In this document: positions 20,695 to 63,532 of the stretch, in pieces | How positions within the stretch are numbered: position 1 is the first letter of the stretch | Layout: each line of letters starts with the position of its first letter | Origin: a virus | Virus record (IMG/VR): IMGVR_UViG_3300029989_000006 | DNA: 64,000 nucleotides | Reading direction: 5' to 3' (one strand) | Position numbers and translations under genes: made by a program | The notes under the pieces: model-generated | What the model saw: the letters and a program-made list of their open reading frames with translations, nothing else | What the model was told of the DNA's origin: nothing | Databases searched by the model: none

Positions 20695-20734
20695 AAATAC
20701 CCACAGTACAATCGTACTGTGGGTATTTTTTTTT
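20695..20734. terminator. hairpin terminator between the convergent arms (probably bidirectional)
   Basis: AAATACCCACAGTAC-AATC-GTACTGTGGGTATTT plus T run; A-rich on the other side. Confidence 0.9.
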
Positions 20735-23700
20735 ATTCTGATGGATGCATAAACTCAAACATCTTAAGATCTTTATTCATTAATTGTTCAAATGTTTTAT
20801 TTCCTCATAATACACTGTGTACATCTGTTGCAGTTTTAGTTCCTCAAGCTCAAAAAACTGGCTCAGTTTTTAAAGCTCCTAAAGTATTATTTCATAAATT
20901 TCCTTCACTTAATACTTTTTTATTTACGGATGCCATAAACTCTACTGTTCTTCCATCAATTCCATCAGTACCATTTTCTGCAATTCAGCCATCATAAATA
21001 GCCTTCATCATACCAAACAGTAAAACCATTAATAATGAATCTACCATTGCAAAACCTACTCTCTCATTTCTATGATCTTTATTTTTTGCAATTTCTCCTC
21101 AGTTTCCTTTTATAACATCTTGCATTAGATATCCTACAGAGTATAATAACCCTTCTTGTGGATGTCCTACTCATGCTAACATTGGATCTCCAGTATTTTC
21201 AGTAGTTGCTTTAAATCCAATAATTTCATCAGGATTTGTTTGACTATAAACAGGTTCTCTTCATAATAATTGACCTGTTTCCTCATCAGTTACTTGTTGA
21301 TGACTTCCCATCATACTTTTATCTGCAGAAACTGGTTTACCAAATCACATATTCATCTTACCTGGCCAGAATTGAAGTAATTGTAATCAGATTATTCCAT
21401 ACCAAGTATTATGTCACTCGGCTTGACTATCTTTATCATAATATCCATAAACTGTATCAGTAAAAGATTTAAATCCAGTTCTTTCTTTTTCAGAATAAGC
21501 TTGATCTAATAAATCAGTTGCTTCATCAAGAATTGGATTGTTTCCTTTAGCTAATTCTGTATTTCTTTCACCTAAAATTATTGTATAAAGATTTCTTTGT
21601 TCATTATATTTTAGATTATTCTTTGCAGGAATATATTGTCCATCAGCATTTTTATATTTTTCTCTATTTTGGAAATAATATTCAAATCGCTTATCTTGAG
21701 TTGGATCATAGTGTATATAACCTTTATCGTCTAAAGTATGTGCATAAAAACTTCCATCATGAATCATTTTTGCAATGAATAGAGATAATCTATTATAATA
21801 ATCAGGAATAGTATTACAAGCATACATCCATTTACTTAATCCTAACATAGCACCTCTTCTATTTGTCTGCATTTTTCTCGGTAAAGAATTAACATCCATA
21901 TTTGCAAATCCATAATAAAGATTTATTCCATCCATTAAATTTCATTTTTTAGACATTTTATTATCAACTGCTAACATAATCTTCATTGCTTCTGCTAAAT
22001 CTTTAATATTAAATGGTTTTTTTCCACCATAAATATTAAGGGCAGCCAATCCTACATTTTTATACAATCCAAATGTTAATTCCTTTGCCATTAAAGCAGG
22101 ACGAAATCCTAACATTGCAGCAGTTGCAATGGTTTTCCCTGATCGAACTAATCTAATTGCATCACTTGCCTCTGGATCAATAATAGGTTCATCAAATAAT
22201 CCTAATTTTATTCTATTAGTAATGTATTCTAATTGTTTAGATATGTTTTCTTTATTTTTTCCTGCAAGTAATTTCATTCATCAAACATATGATGTAATAT
22301 TTGGAAGAATTGCGTCAACATTTGCTTTTCTTATACTACTGAAAGCAACTCTATGAGCTATTGTATCTAAATCCAATTCATAATATCCTGGGGAATTTTC
22401 ATTAATTAGTCTAACTTTCATTTCATCTGATTGCATAGAATAAATATCATACATTTCATTGAAACCTAATTGTGTTTCTTTAATTCTATTTAAATCATTT
22501 TCTGAAAATTCTCTTGGATCTAAATAGTCCTTAGTTTCATCAAGTCATTTAGATACATCTTGTCATAATCCTGCTAATCCACTTTTTAAAATTCTATCAT
22601 TTCTATTAATTTGTTGAGAACGCATTATTGGCATTTTGAAATAATCTCCAGAAATAATACTCTTTATAATTATACCAGAAGTATCAGTTTTAGTAATAGA
22701 TTCTATACTTGTTAAATCAATTTTACCTCATAATTTTTCTGGAATATGTAGTCTATATTTTTTAATTTCAAATAACATTTGCTTAGAATATTCTTGTTCA
22801 GCCTGTGTTAGAGTCTTATCAGAATATGGATCTTTTAATGACCAACTATTAGAAACTTCACTGCCATCATGTTCTCACATATTTTTATTAAGAGATCTAA
22901 CATTACCAATTCAATTTTGTGAAAGATTTGAGTAGTTTATTTTTTTAAAAAATTCATATGTAAATGCAGCTATTGTAGTAGATTGTTTATACATTTTATG
23001 TCTAATACTAGAATTTGCTCCTGTAATCATTTTATTAATATTCTGTAAATCTACAGAACCTATACGATCAGGAGTATTAGTTTTCAAACCACCAATAATT
23101 CCTAAAATTCTTCTACCAGTTTTATCATAATCTGCTTGTTCATCTGAATAAAAAGCTGCTAATAAACTTTTAAAATCAGAGAAACCAATAGCAAAATTTC
23201 TCATTTGCATAAAATCTCCCTCTGGGACATCTCCTGATTTAGCAACAATTAATGAAGATAGAATTGCAAAAACATATTCAAGTCTGTTCTTAAAATCAAT
23301 TTCAGAACCAAAAGTTTTTTTCTTTAATTCTGGAAAAGCATCAGCAAGTTCTCTATGAATTTGTTTCAATTTATACAATTCCATTCCTTGATAATCTTCA
23401 CCATATTTTAAAACAATTTTTTCAACTGATGTAGACTCTAAATTAAGAACTGCCTCTTGCATTTCTGTAACAGCTCTATCTGTAAGATTAAGAAAATTAG
23501 ATAAATTTATTTTTGGAGTTATTCCTTTTGAAGTTAATAAATCAAAATATTGTTTTTGTATTTTATTTACATCAAAATATCTTGCCTGAGATCCCTCAAC
23601 ATTTAATGGTATTAAATTCTTAATTTTATTGAAATCTAAATCTAATTCATCATAATAATGATGAAAAAATAATAACATTTTTAAATATTCAACCTCAGCA

Positions 23701-25334
23701 AATGTTGTGTTTTTATCATATTTTGCATCACCATTTAATACAGTCAAACTAAATAAAACTAATTTATTACTTCTTTTACTTTTTAATAAGATAAATCCTA
23801 AAGAATCAAGTGCCATATTATTTTCAACAACTTTATAATCACCATTTAAATACGGAGATAGTAAGGCATTAACATGAAGGGTTTGGTGGTCATTAGCCAT
23901 CTTAAGAGGTAAATCCGATTTATTTAGAATTGCCTCAGAAATTTTATCCTTTAATTGCGTAACTCTGTAATAGTTATTTTCCGATAATTTCTTAGTATAT
24001 GCGTAAACTCTTTCTTTAAATTTTACCAGTTTTTCAGCATCTGATAAACCTGGTGCCCTAAATCTAAAATTTTCATCTTTAATTAAACCAAGTTCAAAAT
24101 CATCAATTTTACTAATAAATTCTAATTTATTATTTTTTATTGCATCTGCAATTATTTTTTCTGGATCATTTTCATCCTTAGATGTTTTGATCTTATATAA
24201 TGGGAATAAAAAAGCTAAATCTGCTAAAAATCTATCATTCTTTTTAGTATCATATTCTATATTAAACTTTTCAGGAATAATTAACTGAGCAGTTCTTGTT
24301 ATAGTACCAGTAGATTGTAAACCAGTATTTGCAGCAGATAATGATACAATTTTTCCTGCGCTAAAATTAATTGGATTAAATTTATTTAAAGTTGAACGTT
24401 CTCCAATACTGATTGGAATAACATTTATAGAAATAATATTTTTAGCATTAATATGTTGTGCTAATAACTGTCTTTGAAGTGCTAATTCTCAATCTGTTGT
24501 TAATTTCTTTGTTGAATCCCAGTCTGGATAATCACGTTTTGATAATTTTAATTCAAAAATATGAACATTTCCATCCTCATCAACTACAACAAAATCTAAT
24601 TTTCCTTTTAAACCAATGGCTCCACCATCTATAGTATCTAATATAACATTAGTTAATATAGTTCCTTTACTATTTAGAGTTGAATAAATTTTATATAATA
24701 CATCTTTAATTTTATCTTTTCAATCCTGACTTTCTCCACCTAAATGCCATTTATTCTTTTCAATTAAATCATCAATATTCTGTTCAACACTAATATTAAA
24801 TTCACCTTGAGAAAATTTAAGACTACTTAAAATTGAATGTAATCCAATTCCAAAATCTCTTAATCCTTTTTCTATTTCAATAACATCTTGAATATCCTTT
24901 GTATATTGTATGATTTTATTACTTATATCTGGATTATCAGCATATTGAGAAATTAGTTCTTTTAAACTTCAATCAATATGTGGATTAACTCCATCAGAAA
25001 TTAATTTCCTTTTAACTTCTGATAGTATTCTATTTTCTTCAATATATTCAGGAGCTAATCTTTGTTTAGAAATTCCTAAAGTTCCTAAAAACTCTTCCTG
25101 TCTAGTAGTAATAAATTGTGAAATATCCATTTTACTTGGATCCATTGATATAGTTTTTCCTCTTGGAAATTGATCTTTAATTTTATCTACTATACTATTT
25201 ACAATTTCATCAGAACTAAAAATTTTTGTATTTTTTAGTTCTGATGTATTTTTATAATAATATTCAGTTAATCCTGTTAAAGTTACAGGATGTTTAAAAT
25301 TATCCTTTAATAAGTAAGTACAATTTATTGACAT
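20733..25334 (-). CDS. giant virion cargo protein (~1533 aa, TGA=Trp) with PD-(D/E)xK nuclease-like domain
   Basis: Track fragments starting at 25334, 23900, 22277, 21935 share one frame; starts MSINC; GKLDFVVVDEDGNVHIFELKLS at ~24545-24606; TAA at 20733. Confidence 0.85.
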
Positions 25335-28300
25335 TGTATTTCTAAATTATTGTTTTTAATTTGTTCTGACATTCATTCACGGAAATTGGTTTCAAATAAA
25401 ATTAAACTTTCATTTCCTATTTCATGAGAGAGTCTGGGAAATCTTGATTCCATAGTAGTATTTAATATAGAAAATATATTTGAATCTTCTGTTATTGGTT
25501 CTAATTCTAATTTTATTAAAGCACTATTTATTGCATTGCTAAATGATTTATAATCAATAATATTTTCAATTCCAAGATTAATTTTATTAGTTAATTTATT
25601 AATTAATTCTTCTTCTAATTCAGATAAATCTTCTGTTTTAGAATTAGAAAGTAATTTATAATTTTGTAATACTTCTTCATATGTATTTTTACTTAAATCA
25701 TTGTATTTTAATGCAATAAAAAATAAATGTAAATACTCATGAATAATATTTTGTTTACCAGAATTAAGATTTGCAGTATTTATAACCAATCTTTGTCCTT
25801 GTTCATTAGATTCTATTCAAGCCTGTTTAGATTGAAGATCAGTATTATATACATGATCTACATCAATATTAAAAATTGTTGAAAATCTTTTAGTTAAATC
25901 TGAAAGTATAATTCTATTTCTAGCAATAATATCCTCAGGAGAATTATTATTTTCACCAATTTTAAGATCTAATTTTTCTAATTTTGATCCAATTTTACGA
26001 TTTCCTTTCTTTGCATAAATTCACATTATATCATTAGAATTTTTAGGAATAGTTTTAATTACTGTTAGAATTTTACCCCTGTGTGAAAATGTATTAAATT
26101 CTATAGTAATGTTATCAGCTGAAGCAGAAGTAATTTGATATAATTTGTTTTGAGAAACCATATTTCCATCAACTGTCTTAGCTAATACAATATACGCTCC
26201 AGGTTGTAATAATTCTCTTTTTTGTTCAGTTTTTTCCTGAAAATTAGAATTATACAATGCTTTATTAAATCTTTGATAATAACCTCTTTCTAAAGTTTTT
26301 ACATATAATCCAGTTCCGTTAATATTTCGTTTAAAATTAATTGCATTAATTAAATCCTCAGTAACATTAGTGTATCCTTCATAGTCTTTTGGATTTTTAT
26401 TATATATTTCTTCTGCAACAAGTGTTCCTATATTTAATTGTCCACTTGGCATTAACAAAGCTGTCTGAAAATCTAAATTACTTGGGATAAAACATAACAT
26501 TGAAGTTTTATCTTCTCCTTCATATAAAGTCTGTAAAAATAAATTATTATATTCTATATTTTCAATAGCAGAACTTCTACTAATATCACGTGTAGTAATA
26601 AAATTAGTTCGTTTTGATAAATCATTATCTACTAAATATTCATTTATTGGCATTAAAGTTTTTTTATCAAAATTAATCATTGCTAATAAATTTTTATCTT
26701 TATTTAGTATTTGATAAATTTGATTATATTCAACTCCTTCATTAGTTTGCTTTGGTATTATAACAAAGTCTCCTTCTGAACTTAATTCAAAATTATCAAA
26801 ACTTGAATAAGAAAATTTAGCTGGAGATTGATCTTTTGCAATTCTATTTGCAAATTCTGACATTTCTTGAAATACTTCTCTAGTAACCTGTGGTTTTTTT
26901 CTATAAACATTTACTACAGAATCTCTACTAATTGCTTCAGAATAATATTTATCATTTCTTTTTACTAATATATAAATTGATTTTTCATCATCACTTATTC
27001 CAAGAACTTTATTATATCTTCTTTTACCTTTTTCATCAATATGAAGTATATAATCAGATGAATCAATAGGAACTTGAGGATTTCTTCTTAATTCTATTGC
27101 ATCATAATTTTTTAATGTCTGAACTTTTTCTTCCCATGTTTGGTCAGTAAATTCATCTTCAAATGCATTTTTATGTGTTATTAGAGTTGTAATTCTATCT
27201 AAATTAACATATGGATTTTCTAATAATACATCTTGTTTTTCACCAGTATAAACTTTATTAAGCAATAATTTAGAAGGAGAAACATCTTTAATAGTATTTC
27301 AATAAGTTTTTACCTCAGTTTGTTTAGCCCCATTCTTTATTTTTTCTTTTCTAGTTTCACTTTGGACTCTACCACCTCTTACTGCGCTAGATAAAACTAA
27401 TGATTTAGGTAAATATTCACCCTTATTTGCTTTTATAACAATTGAATCATTTGAATTTATTTCATTTGCTTCAGTAGTATTTAGTATTTTAGTTCCTTTA
27501 GCTAATTTTCTAAATTTTATTTCTCCTAAATATATTCTGTCTGTGGCAATTTTAATTTTTCCTTCACTATTATAAAATCCTCTAATTTTTATTCTATCAT
27601 CCTCTATATCCACATCAACAGGAACAATATATCTTGTATAATCCTCTTTTTTAGGAATTAATATTAAATCTTGACCAAGACTTAGATTGGATTTTATAAA
27701 ATTAACCATAGATTCTAAATCTGTAAAATCTTTAGAAGTTTCTTGTGGTGAATAATAATCATCCTTTTTTTCTAGATACTTCTGAATCTTTATTCCCTTT
27801 TGAGTTAAAGTAGATTTTAAATAATCATCAGATATTTTACCATATTCCTCTGATGCTTCTTTATTTTTATCTACTCAATTTGTTTCTCCTAAATTAAAAA
27901 TTTGTTTTAAAAGTAAATCAAATTGTGTATTTAAAAGGAATTTTGAACCAGTTATTATATTTACTAAATCAGCGTAAATGGCATCTCTATTAGGATTTTG
28001 AGATAAACTGTCTAAAATTGGATTCTGAAATTCTAAATTTTCATTTTCTCCAATAAATTTTCCAATAAAAAATTCTTCTGGAGTATATTCTTTAGTTATG
28101 CCATATTTTAATAAAACATTTGATAAATTTTCTTTAGACATTAAAGATCCCTGATGTTTAAAAATTCCATAGAACATAGAGAGATAATTATTTTTATCAT
28201 AAACTATTGTTGGATCTTCTGTTCCATTATTTATTACAGTAGCTTGATTTTGATCAAATTGTCCTGAAATAAATATTTTCTTATGTTTTAAAGGTCCTTT

Positions 28301-28855
28301 ATAAAAGTTATTTAAAATAATAAATAATGCATTATCTGTTTGTGCTTCTATAGTTGTATCACTAAAACTGTTTAAATAATCCTCTAATTTATTTAATTCA
28401 TCTATTGGAGCAGTAGTATTTAATACTCCAGTAATGTTTAGATTATTAAAATAAGTATCAATTTTATTTTCTGAAGCAAGATTTAATAATTCCTGAAAAT
28501 TAATCTTCTGATATTTAGTTCCATTAATTTTTTTATAATCAAAGGCAATATCATAATTAAGATTCTTTCATATTGCATTTTGTAATGAATTATTAGTTAC
28601 CTTCTTACTAATAAGTTCATTTAATTTAGTAATAACCTCGGAATCTTTAGTGTTTCTAATTATGTTATTTATTTCATTTACTGTTAAACCTGTATGTAAT
28701 GAATTTAAATAGGCAAGCAAATTACTAGTACCTTCTTCTTTAGAAGTTGGGAGTAATTCTAGAAATTTTTGATCCTGTAAAGATATTTGGTTTACAGTGG
28801 AGGGGATTCTTAGTTCCCCCCCATTTGGTAATTTTACATAAAAATAGCACTTCAT
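25325..28855 (-). CDS. large virion cargo protein (~1176 aa, TGA=Trp) with C-terminal zincin HExxH motif
   Basis: Fragments 28864, 28177, 27709, 27265, 25789 share one frame and end in TGA; starts MKC (TAATG overlap); IIHEYLH at 25727-25747; ends IQCQ-TAA. Confidence 0.82.
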
Positions 28856-31800
28856 TATATACAATTATAATTAATTATTAATCCCTTTAAGTTAATTAGG
28901 TTTTTTAATTTATCTACATTTCTAGTTAACTCTAAATTTGCGTTATTTACTATATCCATTTCAGTATTAATAACATAATCTCCATTTACTAATGATAAAT
29001 TATTATTAACTCCAGTTGTTAATTTATTTCTAACATTTAAAGTTAAAAATAATAAAGTATTTAATTTACTTCTATAGATTTCTATTCTAATTGCTGGATT
29101 TTCAATTGGTAATAAATCAAGTAGTTTTGCTTCTCCTCTATCAATTGCAACTGAATATTTTATATATTCTCCTGCAATATTATTATTATTCTTTATATAA
29201 TCCTCAAACATTGGAGTTAATCTCTTATCTCCATAAGAATCATTATTTACAATTAAATTATAAACATAAAGTAAATCTTTTCACTGCATATTAACTCCTC
29301 TTACATTTGGTATTTTTACACACTTTTGATCAATTTCATTAAATTGATTTAATAATATCTGAAATTTTTCCAAATTAATAGTTGAATTTAAACTGCTAAT
29401 AGGAAAAGTTGGAGTAACCTGTGTTGTGGAAATATTAAAGCTATTTTTAACAGTAGATAATCTTAATATATTACCTAAATCTGTATTTTGTTCATTTTTT
29501 AAAATTTGTAATCCTAATACTTCTACCATTCTTTTAAAATTAGCAATACCAGTATCAGTTTTTAAATCAATTATATAATCAGGATCAGTAACTTTTACTG
29601 TTACAACTTTTCCTTGGTCAAATACTGTAGGATTTACAAGTAAAGCTCCTGAAGTTGAAATCTTAGCTAAATCATCTCTGTATAAAGTTATTGAGTTTAT
29701 ACCTGCTAATCTTAATCAATCCTGAACTTTAAATACTAATGCTTCAGCTTTTTCTCCATTTTTTAATCAAGAGGCAACAGCTAATTTATCATATAAATTA
29801 ATTATTCTTCTAATCATAACATCATCAATGTTGATAGAAAATGCAGGATTACCTCTTCAAGTTTTAATTGCTCCTTTATTATATTGTTGGATATTTAGAG
29901 AATTTGTTCTGATAATATCACGCATTTGCGAAAATATAAAATTATACTTTTTTGACGATATTAAAAGTATATTATTAATAATACCAACACCATCAATCAT
30001 AGCTTTGAAATGTGGTGAATTTTCTATCACATCAAAAATATTTATTGTATTTTTTATAAGATTGTAATAGCTTGTGGTTATTTTTCTATAATTTTCATTC
30101 TTTGGATGCATATAATATCTAAAGTCAAACTGCCCTCCCAATAAACTTACATTTTTAGTTTCTTCAACACCAGTTGAATTAATAAAAGATATCTCTACAT
30201 TATTTGCTAAATTAAATATATCTCTAACATAACCTCTATCCTTTTCTCCTTCATGCAGAAGTGGATTTTGTCTAATGACTCTATTAATTAATGAAATTCT
30301 AAATTGTTCAGATGTATCCCAAGTTGAACTATCTCTTAATTTTATTGCATCCTGTCCAAATATGGCACCCTCTCTATTTCATAGAATTTGATCAAATCCA
30401 GTTAAGAATCTATTTAATTCTATAGAATTAGCAGCAATTTTCTGATTAACTTTTAACATACTTGCTAAAATCTTAAATTCTTGTGCTCCTTCATAAATAT
30501 CATGAAATGTTTCTAGATCTTTAAATTGCTGTAATATAGATGCCTCTAATTGTTTCTTTTCATTATCAAATTGTGTTGAAATTAATATAGTTTCTTTCTC
30601 AGTTTTTGGAATTATTTGAGAATATTTTTTCTCAAGTTCTTCAATTAATTTTGTTTTATCATTATTTAGCATTGTTTCATAAGATACTAATAATTCATTA
30701 ATATATAATTTCTTTGGATCTTTAAAATAATTTGTATTTAATCCTTTAATTAGATATTGAACAATTGGAGAATTCATATATTTTACTACTTCATCAATTG
30801 AAATTCCTAATGAAGTTAGGTATAAATGGGTTCCTAATAATTCAGTTATTCCATTAATTTTTGCCATAACTAACTCCTTTGCATTATCAGTTGCACCTGA
30901 TATAATATTTGAAACAACTACTGCAGCTCTATTGTTAAGAACATCCAGCTGTTTATTTAATTTAGTTAATCCAAAAGCATCTTCTAATTCCTTAGTCATT
31001 TCTTTAGATATATTAATATCTGCAATTGAGGAGATATTATATGATTTACCATTAATATTAAAGGTTTTCAAGAAAGCTTTATTACTTAATCTTAAATCTT
31101 CTGGTTGAGTTTCTAAATGTTTATATCAATTATTGTAATAATTAGTTAATGCTAAAAATACTTTTAATCCATTTGCACCAATACCTACATCAGCCTTACC
31201 AACTGCTGCCTCTTTCTGTTGTTTATAGAAACTTAACATATCTCAATTTGATAAATTTCTATAACTTGCATCCATTCCTGCATTTTTTGCAGCATCATGA
31301 AGTGATTCTACATCTACTGGTATAGAAGAAAGAAATTGACTACTTGGGGCAGAAATAACTTGTCTAATTCTTGCAATAACAGAATTTTTTACTGCATTTT
31401 TAGAATAAATAAATTTCTTAAATGAATTATGTTTATTAACTAAATTTAAAACTAAGTTTGCATATGGATTTATATTATTTTTAATAACAATAACATCTAC
31501 TTGATTAAGTTTTCTTAAGATATTTCCAATAATTTTTGCTTCATCTAAAGATAAATTAATATCTGAAAGATCTTCAATATCACTTGGAATATTAGTTATT
31601 TTTGAAAAATCTAATATATCTTGATCTAGATTAATACCATTATCATTAAATGTGTATTTTTTATATGAAGGTAATGGAAATTTCTCTAATTCATTTAACT
31701 CCTCAACTGTTGAATAATTTGATAAATTAGTTCAAGTATCATATTGACCACTTTTATTAAATCCATATCCCATGATATATGCTTTATCAATATCGAAGTC

Positions 31801-46428: not shown

Positions 46429-46437
46429 AATTTAAAA

Positions 46438-52133: not shown

Positions 52134-52159
52134 GTTTTTACGATTTTTAAATTAAACAA

Positions 52160-52192
52160 TAAAAGGGAGACAGATCTCCCTGCTTCCCTTTT
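52160..52192 (-). terminator. Rho-independent terminator (imperfect stem)
   Basis: Minus strand AAAAGGGAAGCAG-GGAGAT-CTGTCTCCCTTTTATT after the TAG at 52201. Confidence 0.7.
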
Positions 52193-52200
52193 AAGGTAGG

Positions 52201-52482: not shown

Positions 52483-52487
52483 TTTAA

Positions 52488-53081: not shown

Positions 53082-53320
53082 TCTGATAAAATATTTGAAA
53101 TAACTTCTTTATAGTTCTGTACTAATACCCCGCCTTCTTTATGTTTTCATTTTTTTGCATTTTGTGCAAAAATTGCTCTTTTTCTTGTAAGAGAATTACT
53201 ACTGTGTGTAAGAGTTTCTGTAGATTTACCTGTTCTTTCCTTTAAGGCAGTAAATTTTCCCTTATTTGCAGGATTAATATGTATACTTGTTCCTTCTTTA
53301 GCTTTTATTATATATTTCAT
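53069..53320 (-). CDS. small basic phage protein (83 aa, TGA=Trp), absent from the ORF track
   Basis: MKYIIKAKEGTSIHINPANKGKFT...RKRAIFAQNAKK[TGA]KHKEGG...WKK-TAA; TGA at 53147-53149. Confidence 0.85.
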
Positions 53321-53321
53321 A

Positions 53322-54674
53322 TTATATAGTATTAATAAGATTTGTATTATCCTGAGTATTCTCTAATAGTTCTTCTGTAACAAATTTACCACATTCAATA
53401 CAAATTTGATCTTTTTCTTTTGGATCTTCTGTATCATTAAACTGTGTAAAAAATTCTTCCATTTTATCGGTTGCTTCTTTGTGAAATATAATCTCATTCT
53501 TTTCAATTTCAGCATGTTGCTCTATTTTACCATCTTCCACTGTAATCACTGGAATTCCCTTATTTGTAACTGCACTTCCTAAATCTCCATCATAATGATT
53601 TAAATTTTTATGTAATGCACCTTCGGGAATTACATTCATTTTTCCACCAATAGCATATTTAATAACCTCACCATCCATTGCTTGTCCTTCTTGAGCTTTA
53701 AATATTTTTTTCTTAACCTTATTCTTAAGATTTCTTAATTTTGCAGGATTAATCTTTGTTCCTAATTTTCCTGAGACAATTTGATTTTTATATGAATTGT
53801 TTAATCCAGAAGTTAATGCCTGTCTATTTTTTGAATTGATATCTTGCATAGAATTCATACCTGCTAAGGTATTATTTTTATCTAAATCAATTGCATTAGA
53901 TTTTAAAGCATTAGTTGTATTTATTTTTTCTATAGCAGCTCTTTTATTTGCTAATAATCCTTTTTTATTTCCAAATAATTTACTTATAAAATTAGTTACT
54001 CCCCCAATTTCTGTTGAAGCAATAGTTCTCTCTGCACTATATCCTTTTGTAACTTTAGCAGCTAAATCTGTATCAGAACCTTCTACTTTAGTTTTTGCTA
54101 CTGCATTTAAAATTTTTAAAGGCAATAATGCAGTACTTCCTAAAGTTGAATTCATAATTTTATCACCGGTATTACTTGCATTATTAATTCCACCACCTAT
54201 AGCATTAATACCTTTGTTTAATAATCCTGCAGCTTTCATTGTTCCACCAATAATAGTTCCATAACCTGGAATTGCTGATGCAGCATTTGCTGCCATATCT
54301 CATCCTGCATCAATTCCACCTGTTAATGGATCATCTTGAGTTTTATCTGGAATCAATGAGGATAATAAATTGATTCCTTGTCCTACCAATGCTCCTTTTT
54401 GTTCTTTACCTATTCCTTTTCAAGAACTTTGTAAAGTACTCCCAAGACTCTTTTCAGTATTAGTTTCCCCATATTGATTTTTTTCTCATTGGGTAGAACC
54501 TATTGCAGGTGTTGGTATAAATTTTTGTATCATTTGGTTAAATGAATTTTCTTTAGAGAAATTTTGAAATATTCCAGGAATTCTATTTATTTTAGAATTA
54601 CCTGGAGTATTAAAATTAAGAACTGAATCAGAAGGAAATTCCTCTCATTTTCCTGTATATTGGTTAATTGGCAT
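53322..54674 (-). CDS. putative virion protein (~450 aa, TGA=Trp)
   Basis: ATG 54674 MPINQYTGK[TGA], in frame with the 54296 fragment; Gly/Ala-rich middle; C-terminal NVIPEGALH..GIPV..AEIEKNEIIF. Confidence 0.82.
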
Positions 54675-54685
54675 CGTAGTTAATT

Positions 54686-57600
54686 TTATGCATAACTAAT
54701 TGTAAATAAAGTTCTTAAGGCATTAATAATAGAATGTTTCTTTCCATCATATTTTACTCTTATTTTTATATATTTGTCTCTTATTCTCATTTCACTGATT
54801 TTTGAAAATCTTATTTCACCATCTTTTAAATAAGCATATCTTATTTTAATTGGCTGAATTTGTATATCTCAGGAATCTTCTACATAATGCATATTACCCT
54901 TAGTTCTACCATAATTTACAAAATCCTTTCCATCTTGATTTGATAAAACTCTATCTTCTCCATTTCATGTATCATTTACTAATACAGTATCAGAAGTAAA
55001 ATCTTCTCAAGCAATTGTGTCTAATAGACTTACTGTTTTATCTTTAAGAACAAACGGTAATTTTAAAAATTTAAATGTTGAATAATCGGATGGATTAATT
55101 CAAGTTGGGACTGGAAATTCTGGATGATCTATTAAAATTTGTGAAATAAAGTTAGATAATAAATATCTATACCCATTTAAAACTTTATCTAAAGATGATT
55201 GATATAATACAGTATTAATCTTATATGAACCATTTGATTCTAATGTATAAATAAAATCATCTTTTAATACTGGTGTATAAATTCCATCAATACTTGTAAT
55301 ACTATAATTATAAAGAGGTTCATCATTTAATCAACTAATAACTTCTTTATAAGAATGTCAATCATATCCTTCTCCTACAATTTCAAAATTAAAAGAATCT
55401 GGTTTTGATTTATTTGAAATAATTTTTAAATTATCAAATATTTTCTGAACTCCAGGAACTGCAGCCACAACAAATTCAAATTCGAATGGATGTTGTTCTT
55501 CATATCATACTGTATGTTTTATATTTGCAACCTCATCGGCAGTTCCTGCAAATCCATGTTTATATAATTTATTCTCTCCCTTTGAATGAATTTTAGTATT
55601 TGCAAAAGTATAAAAAATATTATTAATATTTTCCGAAAATTCCGGAAATCATGTATTTCTAGTTACTCAATGGTTTAAAAGCTCATTTCAACATAAATGT
55701 CATTGTTGTTTATTATAACTAAAAACAAATAATACATCTTGCTTAAAGGCATTATAATGAGATTTAATACTATAATTTTCAGGTTTATTTAAAACATCTG
55801 TAACTCTTAAATTTATATTATCATTTAAAAATTTCTGAATTTTCATATCTGAAATAGTTTCAAACTTATTTCCATTGGTTCTTCAAATTCTTTTACCAAT
55901 AGTATCTAAACCATAAATATATTTAGGTGTAAAAACTATTGAATTAGCTCAAGTTGTTCCAAAAGTATTAGATAATACCTTTGGATTTTTTGGTAATACA
56001 GTTTCAGTATTAATATAAACATTTTCACCCTGAGCATTCATCATCATAGCACGTTCATTAACTGGAATCATTAAAACCCCATGTTCCATAACTGCTATCA
56101 ATGTTCCATACCATTCTACTAAAGAAACTAGGGCACCATACTCCATTGTATAGTCTTGAAAATTCTGAGCCTTAAATACTCTATTGCCATTTTTAAATGC
56201 ACCTTCTCTAAGTAATTCTGAATAGTAAATTCTATTTGTAAAATTAGTTTTAATAAATGGAACATCTGGAATTTCAAAGTAATATCTATCTGATAATGAA
56301 TGATTTATTCCATTGTTCATAACAGTAGACTCTGGTAATTTATTAGTAATTTTTGCTTCTTGTAATGGATGAAAACTGCGTTTCATTTTATGTATTGCCT
56401 CTTCTTGTGGTCTAGAAAAATCAATATCTCTCATTGCAAGATTTATATTGCTACAAATTTTAAATGTTACTCAATGTCCTAAACCTACTGCATTTACATC
56501 TGGTCTATTAATCTTTTCAGAACCAAATGTTCCATTAGCTTCTGAATATTTTTTGAATTTTTTACCATCTGGTAAACATAATCAGCTTAATGCAACCGAA
56601 CCATCAGTTTTCTCATCAAGTCCACCATATGTAAATAAAGATAATAATTTTTTATATTCAAATTCAGTTCCTCCTGGTAAAGTACTTATTTCACCAGTAC
56701 TATCTCCATTATTTGCCCTAATTAATCCCTGCAAAGCTCCCCCATTATTTATTGATATATGTTTAGAAGTTCTAACTTTAAAGTTCTTATATCAAGTATA
56801 AGGATCAACTATTTGATTATTTGTTGGTAATTCTGGATCTATAAAATTTCATAAGACTCTATGTGTATATGTGCTTATAAAACAATCCCCTCTATAATGA
56901 GTTGGAGATCCTCATTGCCCAATTTTATCTCATGTTAGTCTGTCACCAATTGCCATGAATGGAGAAGAATCATTATATCTAATTCTAAAATAATTTTTTC
57001 AATTACTGAAATCATAATCTTTTTGAAATATATTATAATGTTGTCCAAAGATAAGATTATTTGCACTACTTCCAAGAAAAGTATTAAATCCTCCTCTTAT
57101 TTTTGTTGTACTATCTGATCATGTATTTTCTGATGCAGTTGTTTTATCTAATGAATTAATATTACCTAAAATTGGATCTTCAAATTTTCAAGCAATTGTT
57201 GGATCACCAGCTTTAGAACAAAATTTACTATTATCACCATTATTAATCAATTCAATTTCTGGTTCAACTAATAATAAATTTGTTGTAATAGTATCAGATG
57301 AAATGACATTATCCTTAATTAAATCTCCTAAGTTAAATAATGTTTGAGTATTTGCTCCATCATTAAAAATCTTTCCACCAGAACTATATTTAAACTTCTT
57401 TAAAATAAATTCTGAGGAATTAAAATAATTATTAAATATATCAGTTCTTACACAAGCCTCTGGACATAATAAGGCATTATTCTGTATATCTACAGGTTGT
57501 ACCTCAAATAAACTCCTTCCTAAAATTGGATAATTATGTAAATCTTTCTTTAAAAATGATTCTGAGAAAAATTTTCTTTGATTAGTTCCATTATTATTAT

Positions 57601-59092
57601 ATTGTCCAAAAATAATAGGAGTATATGATTTCTTAGTTGTTGCAATTCCAACTGCTTGTGTCAATAACGTAGGAATTCTTTTTTGCCTAACAAAGAAAAA
57701 TCCTTTAGTTAAATCCCTTAATCCATAAGCCCCAGTAATTTTATTTTGATTTACTATATCATCCTGAAATTTAAATTTAAGTCCTATTGGTTTAATACTG
57801 TCTGCTCCATTAAAAACACTTTGATCTGAATTAATTTTAAAAACTCCTTTAATATTTTCTAAATTTCCATCAATTCTTGAATTAGATTTTTCTAAAATAA
57901 AATCCTCACCAAAATTTAATTCATCCCCTCTCTCATAGTTATCAAATACAGTTATACTTGTAAGTTCTTTAATACCTCTTATATTGAATACTGGAGATAA
58001 TGTATAATCTGGTAAAATATAAATAATTCCAAAACGATATATATCTTCATCTCAATAACCTAATTTATAATAAATATTTTTTGTATTATAATATTCATAA
58101 CCAATATCAGGATTATTTTCTGTATAAGAAGCACTTAAGTTTCCAATAGTTTCATCATATGACAATTCTGGAGTAATAAACAAACTATATTTTTCTAAAA
58201 TTTTAAATAGTTCATAACTTTTAGTAATATTTCCAACAAAAGTTAAATTTTGACAATTTGTATTAGTCTCTGCTGAATCAAAATTAGCATATTGAATATT
58301 TATTTCAGAATTATCTATTTCAACATGATTTTCAAAACCTGTAATAGTCAATTCTGTAGAAATTCCTCTGATTTTAAATTTATCAGTAATTTTATAACTT
58401 TTTAATTGATCTATTAAATTATTTCCTGAATGTTTAGTATAATAAATATTAATATAATCATAGGCTAAATCAAGATTATTAATTTGGAATTTAATAACTT
58501 TATCACTAACTTCATCCATTTGTCCTCCTCTTATAGAAGATGGATGATTTACTGCCCCAATATGACAAACAACTTTACCTGATTCAGATATAAAATCTGA
58601 TTCATTTCCATCACTGTCAGCTAATTTAAAATAAAAATTATAACTCCCCACTGGTAAATTACCTCCACTTTCAATACCTTTAAAATCTAATGTTATTATT
58701 GATCTAACAGTTTTAACTAATCCTGCTTCAATTTTGAAATTTTCTTCAGTATATATATTGGTATCTAAATTTCCTTTTCTATCCCCAATTTTATAAGTAT
58801 TTGAATCTACTAAATAAAATCTAGAATTTATTATCTTTAATGGATTCTTTTTATCATTAATTATTAAATTTACTGAATCATCATATGAAGGTTCTGTATC
58901 TATAATTAAAGGTGAGTTAATATCAATACCTGCAGAGAATGCATTTAAAGATAAACTTACTAAGTCTATGGTTCCATCAGTTGTTAAAACCTTTAAATTT
59001 TGTAAAGGTTTATATTGATATAGTAATTTTCCATCTTCAGGAAAAGCATGTATCGTATTATTTATTTGTATTGATATTAATGGTAAACTCAT
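54686..59092 (-). CDS. large tail protein (~1468 aa, TGA=Trp), tail stabilization/muzzle-like
   Basis: Fragments 59092, 57664, 56434 share one frame; C-terminus RIRDKYIKIRVKYDG..TLFTISYA-TAA; position in the tail module. Confidence 0.75.
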
Positions 59093-59102
59093 TATTTATA
59101 AT

Positions 59103-61145
59103 TTAGTAATTGCTGCAGGCTGTATTTTCAAAACAATTTTGTCCACTTGCATAAGTGTCAATCGGTAATAACATATATAATCCATTATATGAAAAAGTTG
59201 GTTCAGATAAAGAACAAATTCCAAGCATTAATTTTCCATCTTGATTACTTATATTATCAAATTGATTAAAAGGAGCTGTAATTTCATGAATTTCATTTGG
59301 AGGTAAATATGAAATACATAATGGATAATTATTTGAATAAAGTATATCTAAAGGTATTAGTATAGTTCAGCATATTCCCAATCCACTATTAGGATCAGTA
59401 GTTGTTGGTATTTCTTGACAATATTGAGAAGGAGCTAAAACTATTTGCTGTTGAAATAATTGAAGAATATATTCATCAATATTAGTATTTAATGGTTCAA
59501 CTATTAAAGCTTTATTATTTTCCCCAATTGTAAAATAATTAATAATTGTTGGTGTTCCAAAAGCTTCTGCGTATGAATTATTTAAACCATTAAGTAAAAA
59601 TATATATGCATTACTTATATCTGTAACTTTTAATTCATAATCTAAGAATTCTCCATTATTATTTTGTAGTCAATATTCTTGATATAACATATTTCCATTA
59701 ATACAAATATCATTCTGTGGAATAAATTTTATATTATCATAACTTGTATTTATTAGAATAGATCCATGAATTGTATATTTATCTAAAAATTCTTTAGGTA
59801 AATCATCTTCTGTATATTCATCACTAAAGCCTTCTAATGAAAGAATAGGTGTTATAACATATTCTAATAGTTTGTTATTATAATTTGTTCCACTAATATT
59901 ATAAATAATGTAAGATGCTAAATTATCTGTAAACTCCACATTTCATTCATCATATATTTCTGTAGATTTATCTAAATATATTTTAACTTTGGCTTTAGTT
60001 ATTTTAACATCTCCAGTTACTAAATTAATAGATTTTTGAGCAATTCCTTGTAAAGTTAAACTAAATGAATAATAATTTTGTGGAACTAATGTTTCAGTAG
60101 TAAATTCATCAGTCGTTAATTCCTCAGTAGTGGTTGGATCAGTTGTAGATAATACATCAGTAGTAGTTGGTAATACAGTAGTTAGTAATATTGGGATATG
60201 AGGATCTCCAACAAATTCTGAAAGATTAATTGTTGGAACATCAATAACTTTAAATATCTTTAAATCTTCTATTTCTAATGATAAAGCTAATTTTCCTTTA
60301 TATTGAGAAGGACAGTAATATCTAAAATTATTATCATTAAATCAATATTCTCCAACATTAATCTGAAAATTTTTATAATGGTTATACTTTAATCAAATAT
60401 CTTGAGTTAAATCTAAATATCCATTATTTAATTGATGATATAATTTTACTCTATAAAATTTAGGAACAAAAGTAATTTCTGAATAATCTACAATACCTTG
60501 TGAAATATTTTCAGTATGTATAGTTAAACTATTATTAAAAATAATATATCTTCCTGTTTTAAAATCAGTTGTATTAATAACACTATATTTATATAGATCT
60601 GGAGTTACAATGGTTCCATAATAACTTTTACTATCAGAAGCTTCTGGTGAAGGATAACTTCCAAATTCTATTATTCCAAACCTATTATTATAATCCTCTT
60701 CCGTACCAATGATATCTCAATACTTATTAGATTCTTCTGGTAATTTAGGTAAAGTATTATTAAAATAATCTTTTCTCTGATAAAAAATTTTAATATCGGA
60801 TCATACTGGCTTTGAATATACTAAATCATCTTTTATATATGAAACACTTTGATTTCATTCTAGTATATTATTAATATTTATATCTGGTAATTTTCGTGAA
60901 GCTATATATAAAACTCCACCAAATTCTTTCATTCCTAATGGTTGAAATCCTTCAGTTAAGTGAACGACTCCATCTACTGTTTGTATTGGAGCATTACCTG
61001 CATCATTTTGTAGACTTAATTCATCACCATTAAAAGTGATAAAAGTTGCATTTACTGCATCTGTTAGGACATTATTAGGAGTTGTAAGGGGATTTAAGTC
61101 AAATACAAGCCCTTTATCAAAAGTATTAACTGATTCCTTTTTCAT
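59103..61145 (-). CDS. tail protein (~680 aa, TGA=Trp) with muzzle/stabilization-type N-terminus
   Basis: NTFDKGLVFDLNP..PNN.LTDAVN..LQNDAGN; read manually through TGA codons to TAA at 59103. Confidence 0.78.
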
Positions 61146-62157
61146 ATTCTTTTATTAATTCTTGTCATGTTTTATTTGAAGGAATAAATTTTAAATCTCT
61201 TACTTCTCCTAAATATTCTAAATTTCTTAATTTTAATTTTGGTGCCCAAAAAGCCCAACCTTTAAAAGTATCTCTTTTAAATCTAAATATATATAAATGA
61301 TTTGATTTATATCTTAATTCTTCCTGAATTTTTCTTGGTATGATATTTACAAAATGAGTAATTTTTCTTGCAACTTTATTTGTTTCACATCATTCCTGAA
61401 AAAGTCTATCATTTAAACCAATATAATAATATCCATCAAAATCCTTTCTTTCTCATTGTGCAATTTTTCTTAGCTTCTTATCTCTTCTAATACTATATTG
61501 TTTTATTTGATAAGGTATATTTAAAGATAAAGCCCCAATATATGCAACACAATCAATATATTTTTTGGTATTAATAGAAATAGCACATCCATATTTTATT
61601 GAAGAATACATTCTTCTAAATCCATGCATTAAAATCTTTTTTAATTCTTTTAATGTTAATTCTGTGAATTTTTCATGGACTTCTGGTAAAATATCATTTA
61701 TGGTCAAATCTTTTATTGTATAAAATTTTTCTCCTGAATTTATTTTATCCAAAAATTTCTGTTTTAAGGCACCTCCGAGATACACAGGATAAGATTTTTG
61801 ATATGCCTTAGCCTTGTAATAGTACTTGATAAAATAACCCGTAAAATCAGATTCTACAAAATCAATTTCAGAAAAACGACCACATTGTCTTTGTTTCACA
61901 AACTGATCTTCTAGAACAATTTCAAAATCAAGATAACCCTCAACAGAATATGGGATCAAAAATCTTACTTTTTCATCAATCATTTTATTAATAATTAATC
62001 CAAAACAGTATTTAAATGGATCAGCTACTGCATCAGCATAACTATTGGTAGATCCATATAATTTAATAAATCATGCTCATTTTTTATCAGTTACTTTATT
62101 TGTTGGATTTGTATATAACTCTTCACAAGTTAGTCCATGATTAAAAAATATTCTCAT
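61126..62157 (-). CDS. protein with probable tandem IHF/HU-like domains (~343 aa, TGA=Trp)
   Basis: ATG 62157 in frame with the 61983 fragment, TAA at 61126; occupies the IHF-like gene slot of crAss-like gene order; the domain call is weak. Confidence 0.6.
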
Positions 62158-62861
62158 TAACGAACAGGCTTATAACTCTTTCCAAATCGTTTTCTATCCC
62201 AAGAACTGGATACATTAAGTATCTCATCCATTTCGTTTTGATTAATATATTCTGGAATTCTTGCTTGAGAACACAAACTTTTTCATTTTTGTTCTAATAT
62301 TTGAGCTAATTGCATTAAATTTCTATCTCTTGAAACTAATGCATTTTTAAAAGTATTTGTATATGCAAGAAAAGCTGATATTGCATCTAATTCTTTTACA
62401 TTTAAATAAGGTAAACCTTCTTCATCTGCAATTACTCCTTTATATAAAATATGTACACTACGAAAGTTATCAGATAAAAATATTTTTTGTCCTTCTTGTC
62501 TATATTTAATATATTTACCAGAAGAATATAATGTTCCAGTATTATATTTTCTAGATTCAATATAACTCTCAATTCATCCACTTTGTGAATTTCCTGGTAA
62601 TAATTGATTAGAAGTTTTTTGATAATCTTCATAATCTGCTGTAACTGCCTCAATTATATCTACATTACATGGAAGATCTACATAATAATTTCCAGATAAA
62701 TCTTTAATAGGTTCTGTTATATATTTATATAATCTTGTTTGTTTATTTCCTATTCTATCTCATCCAATTAAACCAATTGATTCAAATTCATCTGGATTAA
62801 GTTCTAATCCATATAACTCCCTAGCTTGTGTGTAAGCTGTATTAAAATTATAACTTGTCAT
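62157..62861 (-). CDS. tail ring/neck protein (234 aa, TGA=Trp), absent from the ORF track
   Basis: MTSYNFNTAY..IG[TGA]DRIGNK..LPCN..ILYKGVIADEEGLPYL..K[TGA]KSLCSQAR..KPVR-TAA. Confidence 0.8.
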
Positions 62862-62863
62862 TA

Positions 62864-63532
62864 TTAACGTGGTGTTTGATCATTGGGGTGAGGTTGTGCT
62901 ACTAAACTTCTATAATATCTAATTTTCTTTTCAGTTAATCTCTTTTTAACCTCGGCAGAAATAAAAGATAAATTATCTACTTCTTCTGAAGTACAACATT
63001 TATATTCTGCTAACTGTCTTGGATCTTTAAAAATTGCAATAACCGAAACTTTTTTTAACATAGGTGCATTATAAATTCATGCATCATACATATTATGATC
63101 ATTTGGGGTAGGTTCTACATAAACATATGGTTTATCAAATCCTCTTCTTAGATATTTATGATACTGAAAGGCAGTATTAGTATATATCTTTAATTGTATT
63201 TCTCTATCTATTGATCCAATAAACTCAATTGCCTCACTTTGAAGATCATTAATCGTCTGAGGCATTTCAAAGTGTAATTGTGGAGTAGTAAATGAATCTG
63301 TACTACAGGGACATTTATCCAAAGATTCACAATTCACATCAATACAATTAATTGACATTAATAAATCATTTCTTGGGACAAGATTTTTTAAAGAATATTC
63401 TTTTATAACCTGTAATCTTTCATCTACTATATCATCCATTAATTGATCAAGTGAGATACTAGGTGTTCCTGTAAGTCCACTTAATCCACCTACTATATCA
63501 TTGTATATTGCGGAAGCTAATTTTCTTATCAT
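62864..63532 (-). CDS. tail ring/neck protein (222 aa, TGA=Trp)
   Basis: Two track ORFs joined at TGA 63077: YDA[W]IYNAPMLKKVSVIAIFKDPR. Confidence 0.82.

Follow-up and report, generated by a model that had tools for sequence, protein, structure and literature searches.

A split genetic code, with standard and reassigned stop codons in different genes of one phage genome, has been described before (Yutin 2021, PMC7886860; Borges 2021/22, bioRxiv 10.1101/2021.08.26.457843; the Zeta crAss-like phage "Lera", 2025, PMC12386605), including in gut crAss-like phages. The first of these studies states that reassignment of TGA to tryptophan is confined to late genes, so an earlier note on the present DNA was right to call the phenomenon known in some crAss-like phages. 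Among the studies compared here, the sole experimentally confirmed two-code case is that of crAss-like phages that read TAG as glutamine (code 15), for which the confirmation is metaproteomic (Peters et al. 2022, PMC9523058). That paper contains no proteomic test of TGA as tryptophan in phages; the term 'code 4' is absent and TGA is mentioned twice.

The case described here is environmental. The window, 64 kb long, belongs to a ~172,046-bp crAss-like phage genome from peat. It is 100% identical to the 172-kb contig wherever the two overlap, and assemblies with 100% identity come from several independent samples. The plus arm (~91 kb) carries replication and nucleotide-metabolism genes and a cluster of 24 tRNAs, while the minus arm (~77 kb) carries a putative terminase, portal, capsid, tail ring, muzzle and giant cargo proteins. 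Naming the arms 'early' and 'late' follows crAss-like synteny, which we take to be the gene order of the cultured phages crAss001 and phi14:2, and a few TAnnTTTG boxes. The same two features suggest a Bacteroidota host; single boxes are only a hint in this respect, and no enrichment was seen for the bipartite promoter pattern of Bacteroidota. The earlier note had claimed a dual code, with a late arm reading TGA as Trp and an early arm avoiding this use, and the claim held in every detail checked.

Two codes in one genome

Translated with table 11, the minus strand between 20733 and 63532 breaks into ~50 fragments. With table 4 these merge into the 15 abutting ORFs described in the earlier note, each ending in TAA or TAG, and same-strand ORF coverage rises from 0.649 to 0.997 (0.950 to 0.977 on the plus arm). 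The merged models contain no in-frame TAA or TAG across 14,362 codons; the two other frames contain 1,180 and 1,421. In-frame TGA and TGG codons number 120 and 30 on the minus arm, and 4 and 84 among the 6,441 codons of the plus arm (Fisher p = 5e-33), with GC content equal in both arms at 27%. Tryptophan would make up 2.1 per 1000 minus-arm codons if encoded by TGG alone and 10.4 if TGA is included, compared with 13.7 on the plus arm. The nucleotide context of TGA (+4, -1) is in no way special, which favours global decoding over site-specific read-through. The late (virion) arm thus uses TGA as Trp and the replication arm uses it as a stop, which confirms two codes in one genome.

The last gene of the late arm (20733-25334, minus strand, as are all genes in this paragraph) encodes 1533 aa with 22 TGA and 6 TGG. 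Its final 228 codons contain 11 TGA and 2 TGG, the same count as that made earlier, and its ortholog in the relative G002 has 1556 aa and 15-16 TGA. Two giant virion genes of the cargo type are recoded: 28855-37713 (2952 aa, 21 TGA/5 TGG; 2984 aa in G002), whose product has no match in PHROG, and 37729-46428 (2899 aa, 10/7; 2815 aa in G002). Further recoded late genes occupy 25325-28864 (1179 aa, 6/1), 46438-48309 (623 aa, 5/2), 48309-52133 (1274 aa, 10/3), 53322-54674 (450 aa, 4/0), 59103-61145 (680 aa, 8/0) and 61126-62157 (343 aa, 5/2). The crAss-type muzzle protein (54686-59092; PF25731, 71.9 bits) is 1468 aa long with 23 TGA and 1 TGG. Two products resemble tail ring proteins below the cut-off: a ring protein 1-like product (62157-62861; PF24228, E = 0.0012; 3/1), with orthologs in relatives, and a ring protein 2-like product (62864-63532; PF25702, E = 0.001; 1/0). 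A DUF192 protein (52488-53081; Pfam PF02643, E = 3.5e-22) lies between two table 4 ORFs that end in TAA or TAG (52201-52482 and 53069-53320). ORF lengths of minus-arm genes are kept in relatives. Beyond the recoded stretch, a head-block gene of 366 aa that lacks TGA has its 3' end inside the window (63602-64000) and continues past it.

The plus arm of the window (1-20686, presumed early) has 30 ORFs. Pfam identifies an AAA ATPase (2657-3589), SF1 helicase (7235-8602), RNR (9045-11600), ATP-dependent ligase (14108-15262), ThyX-like protein (16230-17321) and two putative wall-degrading enzymes, an M15 peptidase (18095-18610) and an SLT protein (19979-20686). The location of the latter two on the standard-code arm does not fit the version of the model in which recoding gates lysis. 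The earlier note had plus-arm genes using only TGG internally with one exception, and all four TGA codons indeed fall in that gene, a GIY-YIG/NUMOD1 homing endonuclease (17374-18105; Pfam GIY-YIG, E = 2e-11). They are codons 78, 154 and 187 plus a TGA-TAA at the end, together with 1 TGG; the TGA at 17833 encodes the proposed Trp of GFV[W]RY. With the endonuclease left out, the plus arm has 0 internal TGA and 83 TGG against 120 and 30 on the minus arm (p = 5e-38). Columns aligned with G002 orthologs include 29 in which TGG is retained and none in which it becomes TGA. The whole early arm contains 321 TGG, and internal TGA occurs mainly in nuclease and homing-endonuclease genes; further examples are in short uncharacterised ORFs at 53-56 kb of the contig, which may not be real genes.

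TGA also ends genes on this arm, six of the 30 in the window and ~15% over the whole early arm. The gene at 585-1082 has TAA directly after its TGA (a tandem stop) and ends at the same residue as its G002 ortholog (165/165 and 194/194), which uses TAA. The PD-(D/E)XK-like gene at 1298-2320, with the next TAA/TAG at 3 codons, and the gene at 4487-5815 end within 2 residues of G002 orthologs that stop at TAG and TAA, respectively. Start-codon overlaps are found at three of the six: TGATG at 4487-5815, and ATGA at 11601-12014 (next start 12011) and 15492-15740 (next start 15737). The remaining gene, 5815-6165, has its next TAA/TAG at 6 codons. The match between these TGA stops and TAA or TAG stops of orthologs makes it very probable that TGA is a stop in the host.

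A probable suppressor tRNA and TGA columns in relatives

Alignment of homologs at TGA columns finds Trp in relatives, with TGA and TGG freely interchanged. In G002, 38 of 98 aligned columns are Trp (26 TGA, 12 TGG), where Trp makes up ~1% of residues. The other 60 are expected at the divergence of G002 (muzzle 52% identical; non-Trp columns of the minus arm 34% overall), yet indicate that many TGA codons are lineage-specific. In L001 (88% identical), Trp stands at 22 of the 23 muzzle columns, encoded by TGG in 7 cases, and codon-aware alignments place W at 15 of the 23 in nearly all IMG/VR relatives. The muzzle gene of MT835470, which uses the standard code, has TGG at 9 of 19 aligned columns and mostly F, Y, L or M at the rest. 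The single TGA of the DUF192 gene (52916-52914, GI[W]MKDT) falls at the invariant Trp of the family and aligns to the invariant W of the bacterial crystal structures 3pjy and 3m7a. This codon and the TGA at 53149-53147 (NAKK[W]KH) are both as the earlier note had read them. These comparisons support the assignment of minus-arm TGA to Trp.

The predicted tRNA with anticodon UCA was found 33.4 kb past the window in the 172-kb contig (L066:5307-5380, equivalent to window position 97441-97514; ARAGORN; Rfam RF00005, 56.2 bits). It is 73 nt long with a variable loop of 5 nt and G73. No other gene feature of the minus arm comes before it, and it is the sole tRNA outside the early-arm cluster. Its G002 ortholog is 66% identical, has the same CUUCAAA anticodon loop and G73, and lies at the equivalent site, with the same HNH/EndoVII-like gene coming after it; in both phages the other 24 tRNAs are all on the opposite arm. 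Bacterial tRNA-Trp usually carries A1-U72. The G002 tRNA does so, whereas that of the window phage has G1-C72, so charging with Trp is indicated in this phage by the codon columns only.

We consider it highly probable that the genome as a whole is explained by two codes and decoding by the phage tRNA(UCA). The tRNA would read TGA in minus-arm genes and, since no TrpRS gene was found in the phage, would presumably receive its Trp from the host TrpRS; no release-factor gene was found either, Pfam lists of the genome included. If the host uses the standard code and the suppressor builds up during infection, translation of TGA-containing virion genes would be possible only at a later stage, in line with the published code-switch model. 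With 21-23 TGA in single genes, suppression would have to be very efficient; no factor acting against RF2 was found in the phage.

Uneven recoding and alternative explanations

Recoding within the late arm is patchy. Almost no TGA occurs in the capsid block, in four LamG genes or in the 7 kb that come first after the tRNA. Seven TGG and no TGA are counted in the capsid gene of the window phage, of L001 and of G002 (84% identical). The LamG paralogs (0 TGA/36 TGG) are 36-38% identical to each other with GC3 of 0.11-0.14; they are long-established genes, selected to avoid TGA. The capsid gene of MT835492, a relative recoded at TAG, has the reassigned codon at 4 of 23 Gln positions, compared with roughly one third to one half in neighbouring genes. 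Such gene-specific use suggests that TGA suppression has a cost, or tunes the amount or timing of each protein.

These observations bear on the strongest alternative, which accepts TGA as Trp but holds that recoding is mainly not a temporal switch. It could tune protein yield, each TGA costing some termination so that low-copy virion proteins tolerate many and the capsid none. Alternatively, it could serve to attack or escape the host, by read-through of host TGA stops or by shielding late genes against translation by the host or by competitors, an anti-host idea raised previously (PMC12386605). In favour of this alternative are the unevenness within one co-directional arm (muzzle 23/1, capsid 0/7), the long-resident LamG genes and the less recoded capsid gene of MT835492. 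However, the comparison covers only ~3 independent lineages, and timing control is an equally good or better fit to a suppressor that stands apart from the 24 tRNAs, where the late arm begins. We judge this alternative to be a real but minority possibility.

A host that itself uses code 4 and lacks RF2, with the early-arm lack of TGA-Trp a historical or compositional accident, is very improbable. TAA or TAG follows soon after the TGA-ended genes (+1, +3, +3, +6, +19 and +2 codons) and would rescue termination, and full recoding is seen in some phages whose hosts use code 4 or code 25 (bioRxiv 10.1101/2021.08.26.457843). However, the backup stops are not significantly close (p = 0.08 in the window, 0.06 pooled with G002), and the arms differ starkly at equal GC. 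Early TGA stops match ortholog TAA/TAG stops and ATGA or TGATG overlaps, such a host would leave the phage no need for a tRNA(UCA) of its own, and the same gene is standard-code or TAG-recoded in related phages.

Less probable still is decoding of TGA as another amino acid, namely Gly (code 25), Sec, Cys or Arg. ARAGORN labels the tRNA 'SeC', from the anticodon alone, but tRNA-Sec is roughly 90 nt with a long variable arm, unlike the short-looped 73-nt molecule found here. The acceptor stem of the window tRNA is not Trp-like, but A1-U72 with G73 in G002 is the bacterial Trp pattern. tRNAscan returned 'Trp or Arg' for the Lera suppressor (PMC12386605); across relatives, however, TGA exchanges with TGG and not with GGN, TGY or CGN, and residues other than Trp at TGA columns are mostly aromatic or hydrophobic. 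A truly fragmented minus arm (pseudogenes or an assembly artefact, with TGA a stop throughout), for which the table-11 ORF map speaks and nothing more, is refuted by the frame statistics (120 TGA and 0 TAA/TAG in frame), is opposed by the identical assemblies from several samples and conserved ORF lengths, and has negligible probability.

Comparison with known systems

The preferred two-code reading most resembles that of Zeta-group crAss-like phages (PMC7886860; Lera, PMC12386605), a likeness judged on features. Shared are a genome of ~170 kb, ~25 tRNAs and a tRNA-Sup(TCA), TGA in structural genes including muzzle and ring proteins with the standard code elsewhere, and close relatives with TAG recoding or none. 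However, those phages are from gut and this one is from peat. In tblastn searches, capsid and muzzle show no detectable similarity to named Crassvirales records; apart from a weak match to FpV4, the sole hits, at 35-50% identity, are to two gut contigs that lack annotation. The window phage also differs from Lera in having a family A DNA polymerase and one suppressor tRNA (UCA) rather than two (UCA and CUA), and in Lera a helicase gene is also disrupted by TGA.

The Agate and Jade phages (bioRxiv 10.1101/2021.08.26.457843) likewise combine code 4 structural modules with standard-code replication genes, a TGA suppressor tRNA and low GC, and there too homing endonucleases within early genes are preferentially TGA-recoded. 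They belong to other phage clades, and their hosts are Firmicutes or others. In Jade, a tRNA, TrpRS and RF1 form a 'code change module', of which neither RF nor TrpRS was found here, and the candidate lysis enzymes in the window are not recoded. Code 15 crAss-like phages (PMC9523058) share the two-code logic of late genes that need a suppressor, but with another stop codon and another amino acid. Genome-wide code 4, as in Mycoplasma, Spiroplasma and some endosymbionts, shares UGA decoding as Trp by tRNA(UCA) and an AT-rich genome. Those organisms are without RF2 and use TGA as Trp everywhere, whereas here the meaning of TGA differs between the two arms and it ends ~15% of early genes.

Genome and gene content

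Contigs from independent assemblies of several samples, including a 172,155-bp contig in ENA and one of 172,300 bp from JGI, agree with the window at 100% identity throughout the overlaps. The ends of the ENA contig share a 109-bp overlap, which gives a genome of ~172,046 bp. A 41-mer of the window had no exact match in IMG/VR or the JGI metagenome collection, and the rest of the genome was reached by 11 exact-protein look-ups, with the ENA contig stitched without any conflict, and whole-genome counts cover all except 2,191 bp (ENA contig 81482-83672). The sequencing runs that contain the window sequence are labelled as peat metagenome. The plus arm (~91 kb), presumed early from crAss-like synteny, encodes replication proteins (family A DNA polymerase, DnaB-like helicase and others) and 24 tRNAs. 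Pfam matches in its window portion are to a helicase, ribonucleotide reductase, ligase, a ThyX-like protein, an M15 peptidase and SLT. The minus arm (~77 kb), presumed late, encodes the portal, crAss-type capsid, ring, muzzle and giant proteins.

For the crAss-type muzzle gene (54686-59092, minus strand) the PF25731 score is 71.9 bits against a cut-off of 27, and PF25729 also matches, with 27.5 bits. Ring proteins 1 and 2 (62157-63532, minus strand) are syntenic and have weak Pfam matches, 18.7 and 19.3 bits, that fall below the cut-off. A DUF192 gene is recognised by Pfam at 52488-53081 (minus strand), and the crAss-type major capsid protein is a 476-aa gene 2.6 kb past the window, assigned to PF23898 (Crass_capsid) in precomputed Pfam annotation. 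Two adjacent giant ORFs of 2,952 and 2,899 aa (28855-37713 and 37729-46428) occupy the spot expected for virion cargo genes. No PHROG family matched either of them, and their orthologs in the relative IMGVR_UViG_3300031521_001337 (G002), though of similar size, are just 23-27% identical to them. Their position makes the two presumptive crAss-type cargo/RNA-polymerase proteins. A PHROGs search with 13 late-arm proteins returned a single weak match, 18 kb compared by megablast with the phages of GenBank gave zero matches, the muzzle protein had no match by sequence in the PDB, and tblastn with the capsid protein found no named Zeta record. By sequence searches the phage is distant from named phages. 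The early arm also carries (L075:10001-13486, a stretch placed on the ENA contig at ~69.6-73.1 kb) a gene for a 609-aa protein with an OmpA domain and, after it, genes for an ABC-transporter permease and ATPase, an unusual cargo for a phage.

TGA as tryptophan in the late arm

Read with table 11, the stretch 20733-63532 of the minus strand falls apart into ~50 ORFs. Under table 4 it holds 15 abutting ORFs of 83-2,952 aa, every one ending in TAA or TAG, as the earlier note had proposed for a reading of TGA as Trp. The minus arm in the window has 120 TGA and 30 TGG, and the feature that the note had weighed against its merged models, in-frame TAA or TAG, is absent (0 in 14,362 codons); the two other frames contain 1,180 and 1,421. 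The plus arm in the window (30 ORFs, 6,441 codons) has 84 TGG and 4 TGA. All four TGA fall within one GIY-YIG/NUMOD1 endonuclease gene (17374-18105), which had already been named as the sole exception, and the remaining genes have 83 TGG and 0 TGA. The contrast between the arms is strong (p = 5e-33, Fisher's test) and extends to coding density, with same-strand ORF coverage rising from 0.649 under table 11 to 0.997 under table 4 in the minus arm and from 0.950 to 0.977 in the plus arm. Trp makes up 2.1 per 1000 codons of the minus arm if TGA is left out and 10.4 if it is counted, compared with 13.7 in the plus arm. The individual TGA sites picked out earlier (the DUF192 Trp, NAKK-W-KH and GFV-W-RY) are all correct on a check of the sequence, and so is the tally for the final 228 codons of the gene at 20733, 11 TGA and 2 TGG.

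A codon-aware alignment of the muzzle gene with nine IMG/VR relatives places 15 of the 23 TGA columns at W in nearly all nine, and TGA and TGG swap freely. The relative with 88% identity has W at 22 of the 23 columns, encoded by TGG in 7 of these. The muzzle of G002 (a 213-kb record, unique for ~205 kb if a terminal redundancy of ~6.5 kb is estimated from repeated ORFs) is 52% identical to that of the window. Across the late genes, 38 of 98 TGA codons aligned with G002 stand opposite W (26 TGA, 12 TGG); identity in the non-Trp columns of these alignments is 34% overall. The two closest GenBank records, both unannotated human-gut contigs, carry the same muzzle gene without an in-frame stop (MT835470, standard code) and with 31 in-frame TAG (MT835492). 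MT835470 has TGG at 9 of 19 aligned window TGA columns, with mostly F, Y, L or M at the others. Of the 13 W columns that MT835470 contributes to the alignment, the window has TGA at 9. Judged from these alignments, the clade holds all three coding states, standard, TAG and TGA, in the same gene. The lone TGA of the DUF192 gene is opposite an invariant W of the bacterial crystal structures 3pjy and 3m7a. The enrichment for Trp at homologous columns that the earlier note had asked for is thus present, and at the level of sequence the meaning of the codon and its partition between the arms are established. The nucleotides beside TGA (+4 and -1) do not differ from those beside all codons, and because TGA lacks distinctive neighbours its decoding looks global rather than site-specific.

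Recoding is uneven within the late arm, whose 46 genes from the suppressor tRNA onwards contain 183 TGA and 117 TGG, with no TGA stops. The first 7 kb (HNH, PhoH, PD-(D/E)XK and other genes) has 3 TGA and 19 TGG. Two TGA-free islands lie beyond the window, the capsid block (window-equivalent 63602-69054) and four LamG-domain (LamG_3) paralogs (window-equivalent 70109-76031). The capsid gene has 0 TGA and 7 TGG, its four neighbours summed have 1 and 7, and the LamG paralogs have 0 and 36. The TGA-rich genes are those for the putative terminase, portal, glycosyltransferase cassette, ring, muzzle and giant proteins. G002, whose capsid gene is 84% identical, and L001, the relative with the 88%-identical muzzle, show the same capsid count of 0 and 7, which thus holds in three lineages. 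The LamG paralogs share 36-38% mutual identity and have a GC3 of 0.11-0.14, which is the very low GC3 of the genome; this divergence and composition rule out recent import and mark them as old residents. Because the capsid gene is free of TGA in three lineages and the LamG paralogs are old, these sequences indicate that selection maintains TGA avoidance in some late genes. In the TAG-recoded MT835492 the capsid gene carries less recoding than its neighbours.

Candidate wall-degrading enzymes also differ in coding: the standard code is used by the M15 peptidase (18095-18610, 5 TGG) and by the terminal plus-arm SLT (19979-20686, 1 TGG), and the SLT adjoining the suppressor tRNA is recoded. A syntenic SLT ORF in G002 (129708-130415), also of 235 aa, has 2 TGA and 0 TGG and gives no ortholog match at E <= 1e-5. 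The TGA-poor late-arm head of G002 includes a Cpn60/TCP-1 family chaperonin (L051:2081-3529, minus strand, 482 aa, E = 9e-41).

Standard gene calling breaks up ~45% of the genome. Public gene calls of this same phage vary by sample, with code 4 applied to some contigs and code 11, which splits the late genes into fragments, to others (L013 versus L014 and L015; L066 versus L067). As a result, the proteins occur in databases in intact as well as truncated form.

The suppressor tRNA and TGA in the early arm

The window contains no tRNA. In the remaining genome, where the earlier note had suggested seeking an anticodon TCA, ARAGORN predicts a tRNA with anticodon UCA (56.2 bits with the Rfam tRNA model) at L066:5307-5380, on a contig stretch of the same phage (window-equivalent 97441-97514). 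Its length of 73 nt, short variable loop and G73 rule out a tRNA-Sec. The gene heads the late arm and is oriented along it. It is directly preceded by a standard-code ORF of 78 aa and by a TAccTTTG box and directly followed by an HNH/EndoVII-like gene, and the adjoining divergent SLT gene (L066:3868-4833, minus strand) is recoded, with 6 TGA and 1 TGG. This placement is conserved in G002, where the ortholog, in the same context, is 66% identical and has the same anticodon loop; its acceptor end is A1-U72 with G73, and that of the window phage has G1-C72. The other 24 tRNAs, including tRNA-Trp(CCA), are in an early-arm cluster in both phages, and no second suppressor tRNA was found.

A phage Trp-tRNA synthetase or release factor, which the earlier note had also thought worth seeking, did not come to light: RF-1-domain and class-Ib synthetase (TrpRS) searches of G002, a complete relative, and of G001 found none, with working positive controls, and both families are absent from the precomputed Pfam lists of the window phage's genome. 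The bipartite Bacteroidota promoter TTTG-N17-21-TAnnTTTG, with 2 matches against 4.9 expected, shows no enrichment. Odd tRNA-like genes occur in the early-arm clusters (L047, a stretch of G002 at 75000-91000, positions 7863-7952, 7957-8038 and 8043-8124; L073:9076-9147), including an 82-nt tRNA-Trp(CCA), a 90-nt 'Tyr(ATA)' and entries without an anticodon named by ARAGORN; they possibly have introns or non-canonical structures. Small Val_tRNA-synt_C and YqeY (GatB/YqeY-type tRNA-binding) proteins encoded among the phage tRNAs (L076:16073-16805, ENA contig ~99.7-100.5 kb) might act on tRNAs; no link to the suppressor was seen.

Six plus-arm genes of the window stop at TGA. In three (585-1082, 1298-2320 and 4487-5815) this end coincides, within <=2 residues, with the TAA or TAG end of the G002 ortholog, and in 4487-5815, 11601-12014 and 15492-15740 the stop overlaps the next start as TGATG or ATGA. 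The whole early arm (153 ORFs) has 321 TGG, and in ~23 ORFs the sole TGA lies in the last few codons, as the stop; TGA likewise ends 14 of 124 plus-arm ORFs of G002. At all 29 conserved early-arm Trp columns both phages use TGG. Backup TAA or TAG codons close after TGA stops are suggestive, not significant (p = 0.08 in the window, 0.25 in G002, 0.06 pooled).

Internal TGA in the early arm is found chiefly in nuclease and homing-endonuclease genes (HNH, PD-(D/E)XK, NUMOD1, DUF723, GIY-YIG), and also in some short ORFs, uncharacterised and perhaps not real genes, at around 53-56 kb of the contig. Nuclease and homing-endonuclease genes with 1-4 TGA each are located at 17374-18105, L013:1429-2421 and 3767-4909, and ENA contig 65206-65676 and 88592-89056; the families represented in this standard-code arm are GIY-YIG/NUMOD1, NUMOD1, DUF723, HNH_2 and PD-(D/E)XK_5. 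They resemble the recoded intron endonuclease of Borges et al. (bioRxiv 10.1101/2021.08.26.457843). The presence of TGA in such selfish genes implies that they would be translated only once the suppressor is present.

Decoding model and comparison with known systems

As a whole, the data are very probably explained by a host-charged phage tRNA(UCA) that reads TGA as Trp in the virion genes. The tRNA would be charged with Trp by a host enzyme, the early arm would be adapted to a host in which TGA is a stop, and the isolation of the suppressor at the late arm's head is consistent with a code switch that is delayed. It is conceivable, and compatible with such decoding, that the purpose is yield tuning or anti-host action and not timing alone; the unequal use of TGA among late genes is in keeping with this, and the solitary suppressor at the arm's head with timing. 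A more specific proposal, equally tentative, is that TGA-Trp is under gene-by-gene selection within one late arm and forms a translational dial, with the suppressor setting both the timing and the amount of each virion protein. Presumed high-copy proteins (the capsid and its neighbours, the four old LamG paralogs) would be kept strictly TGG, and presumed low-copy proteins (muzzle, cargo, putative terminase) would have up to 23 TGA. If true, recoding would be a stoichiometry control and not just an on/off late switch.

A host that itself uses code 4 is very improbable given early-arm TGA stops at the ends of orthologs. Still less probable is decoding of TGA as another amino acid; the W columns of G002, the nine muzzle relatives and DUF192 argue for Trp, as do the mostly aromatic or hydrophobic residues at the other columns of MT835470. 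That the late genes are truly fragmented, as table 11 would have it, can be dismissed from the absence of in-frame TAA and TAG, and their ORF lengths under table 4 match those of their orthologs.

Reading of TGA as Trp by a phage suppressor has close precedents, and the earlier note was right that late-gene stop recoding is known in some crAss-like phages (PMC7886860, PMC12386605). Yutin et al. (PMC7886860) reported TGA to Trp as confined to late genes, and found that within the Zeta group the code can change over a short distance. Borges et al. reported TGA-recoded clades with suppressor tRNAs and standard-code replication modules, together with recoded intron endonucleases in early genes and a code-switch model. 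The 2025 Lera paper (PMC12386605) describes a Zeta crAss-like phage with 26 tRNAs, including tRNA-Sup(TCA), and TGA within its muzzle, ring and TerL genes. Peters et al. 2022 (PMC9523058) validated TAG to Gln by proteomics; a test of TGA to Trp is not reported there. Feature by feature, the phage is of the same kind as those of Yutin, Borges and Lera; its recoding is real, well supported and already explained, and the current picture of phage code switching is unchanged. Its likeness to the Zeta group lies solely in the size of the genome, the tRNA load and the mixture of coding states. In a full-text search, no literature combined Crassvirales, peat and recoding. What is new is modest: the peat habitat, the distance from named phages, a clean layout with one suppressor apart from the other tRNAs, and TGA-free islands in the recoded arm. 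Late-gene recoding of TGA to Trp, described in crAss-like phages of the gut, is thereby extended to a deep-branching lineage from peat, which, with its lone suppressor, working TGA stop in early genes and TGA-free islands, offers a clean natural case for distinguishing among timing, yield and both.
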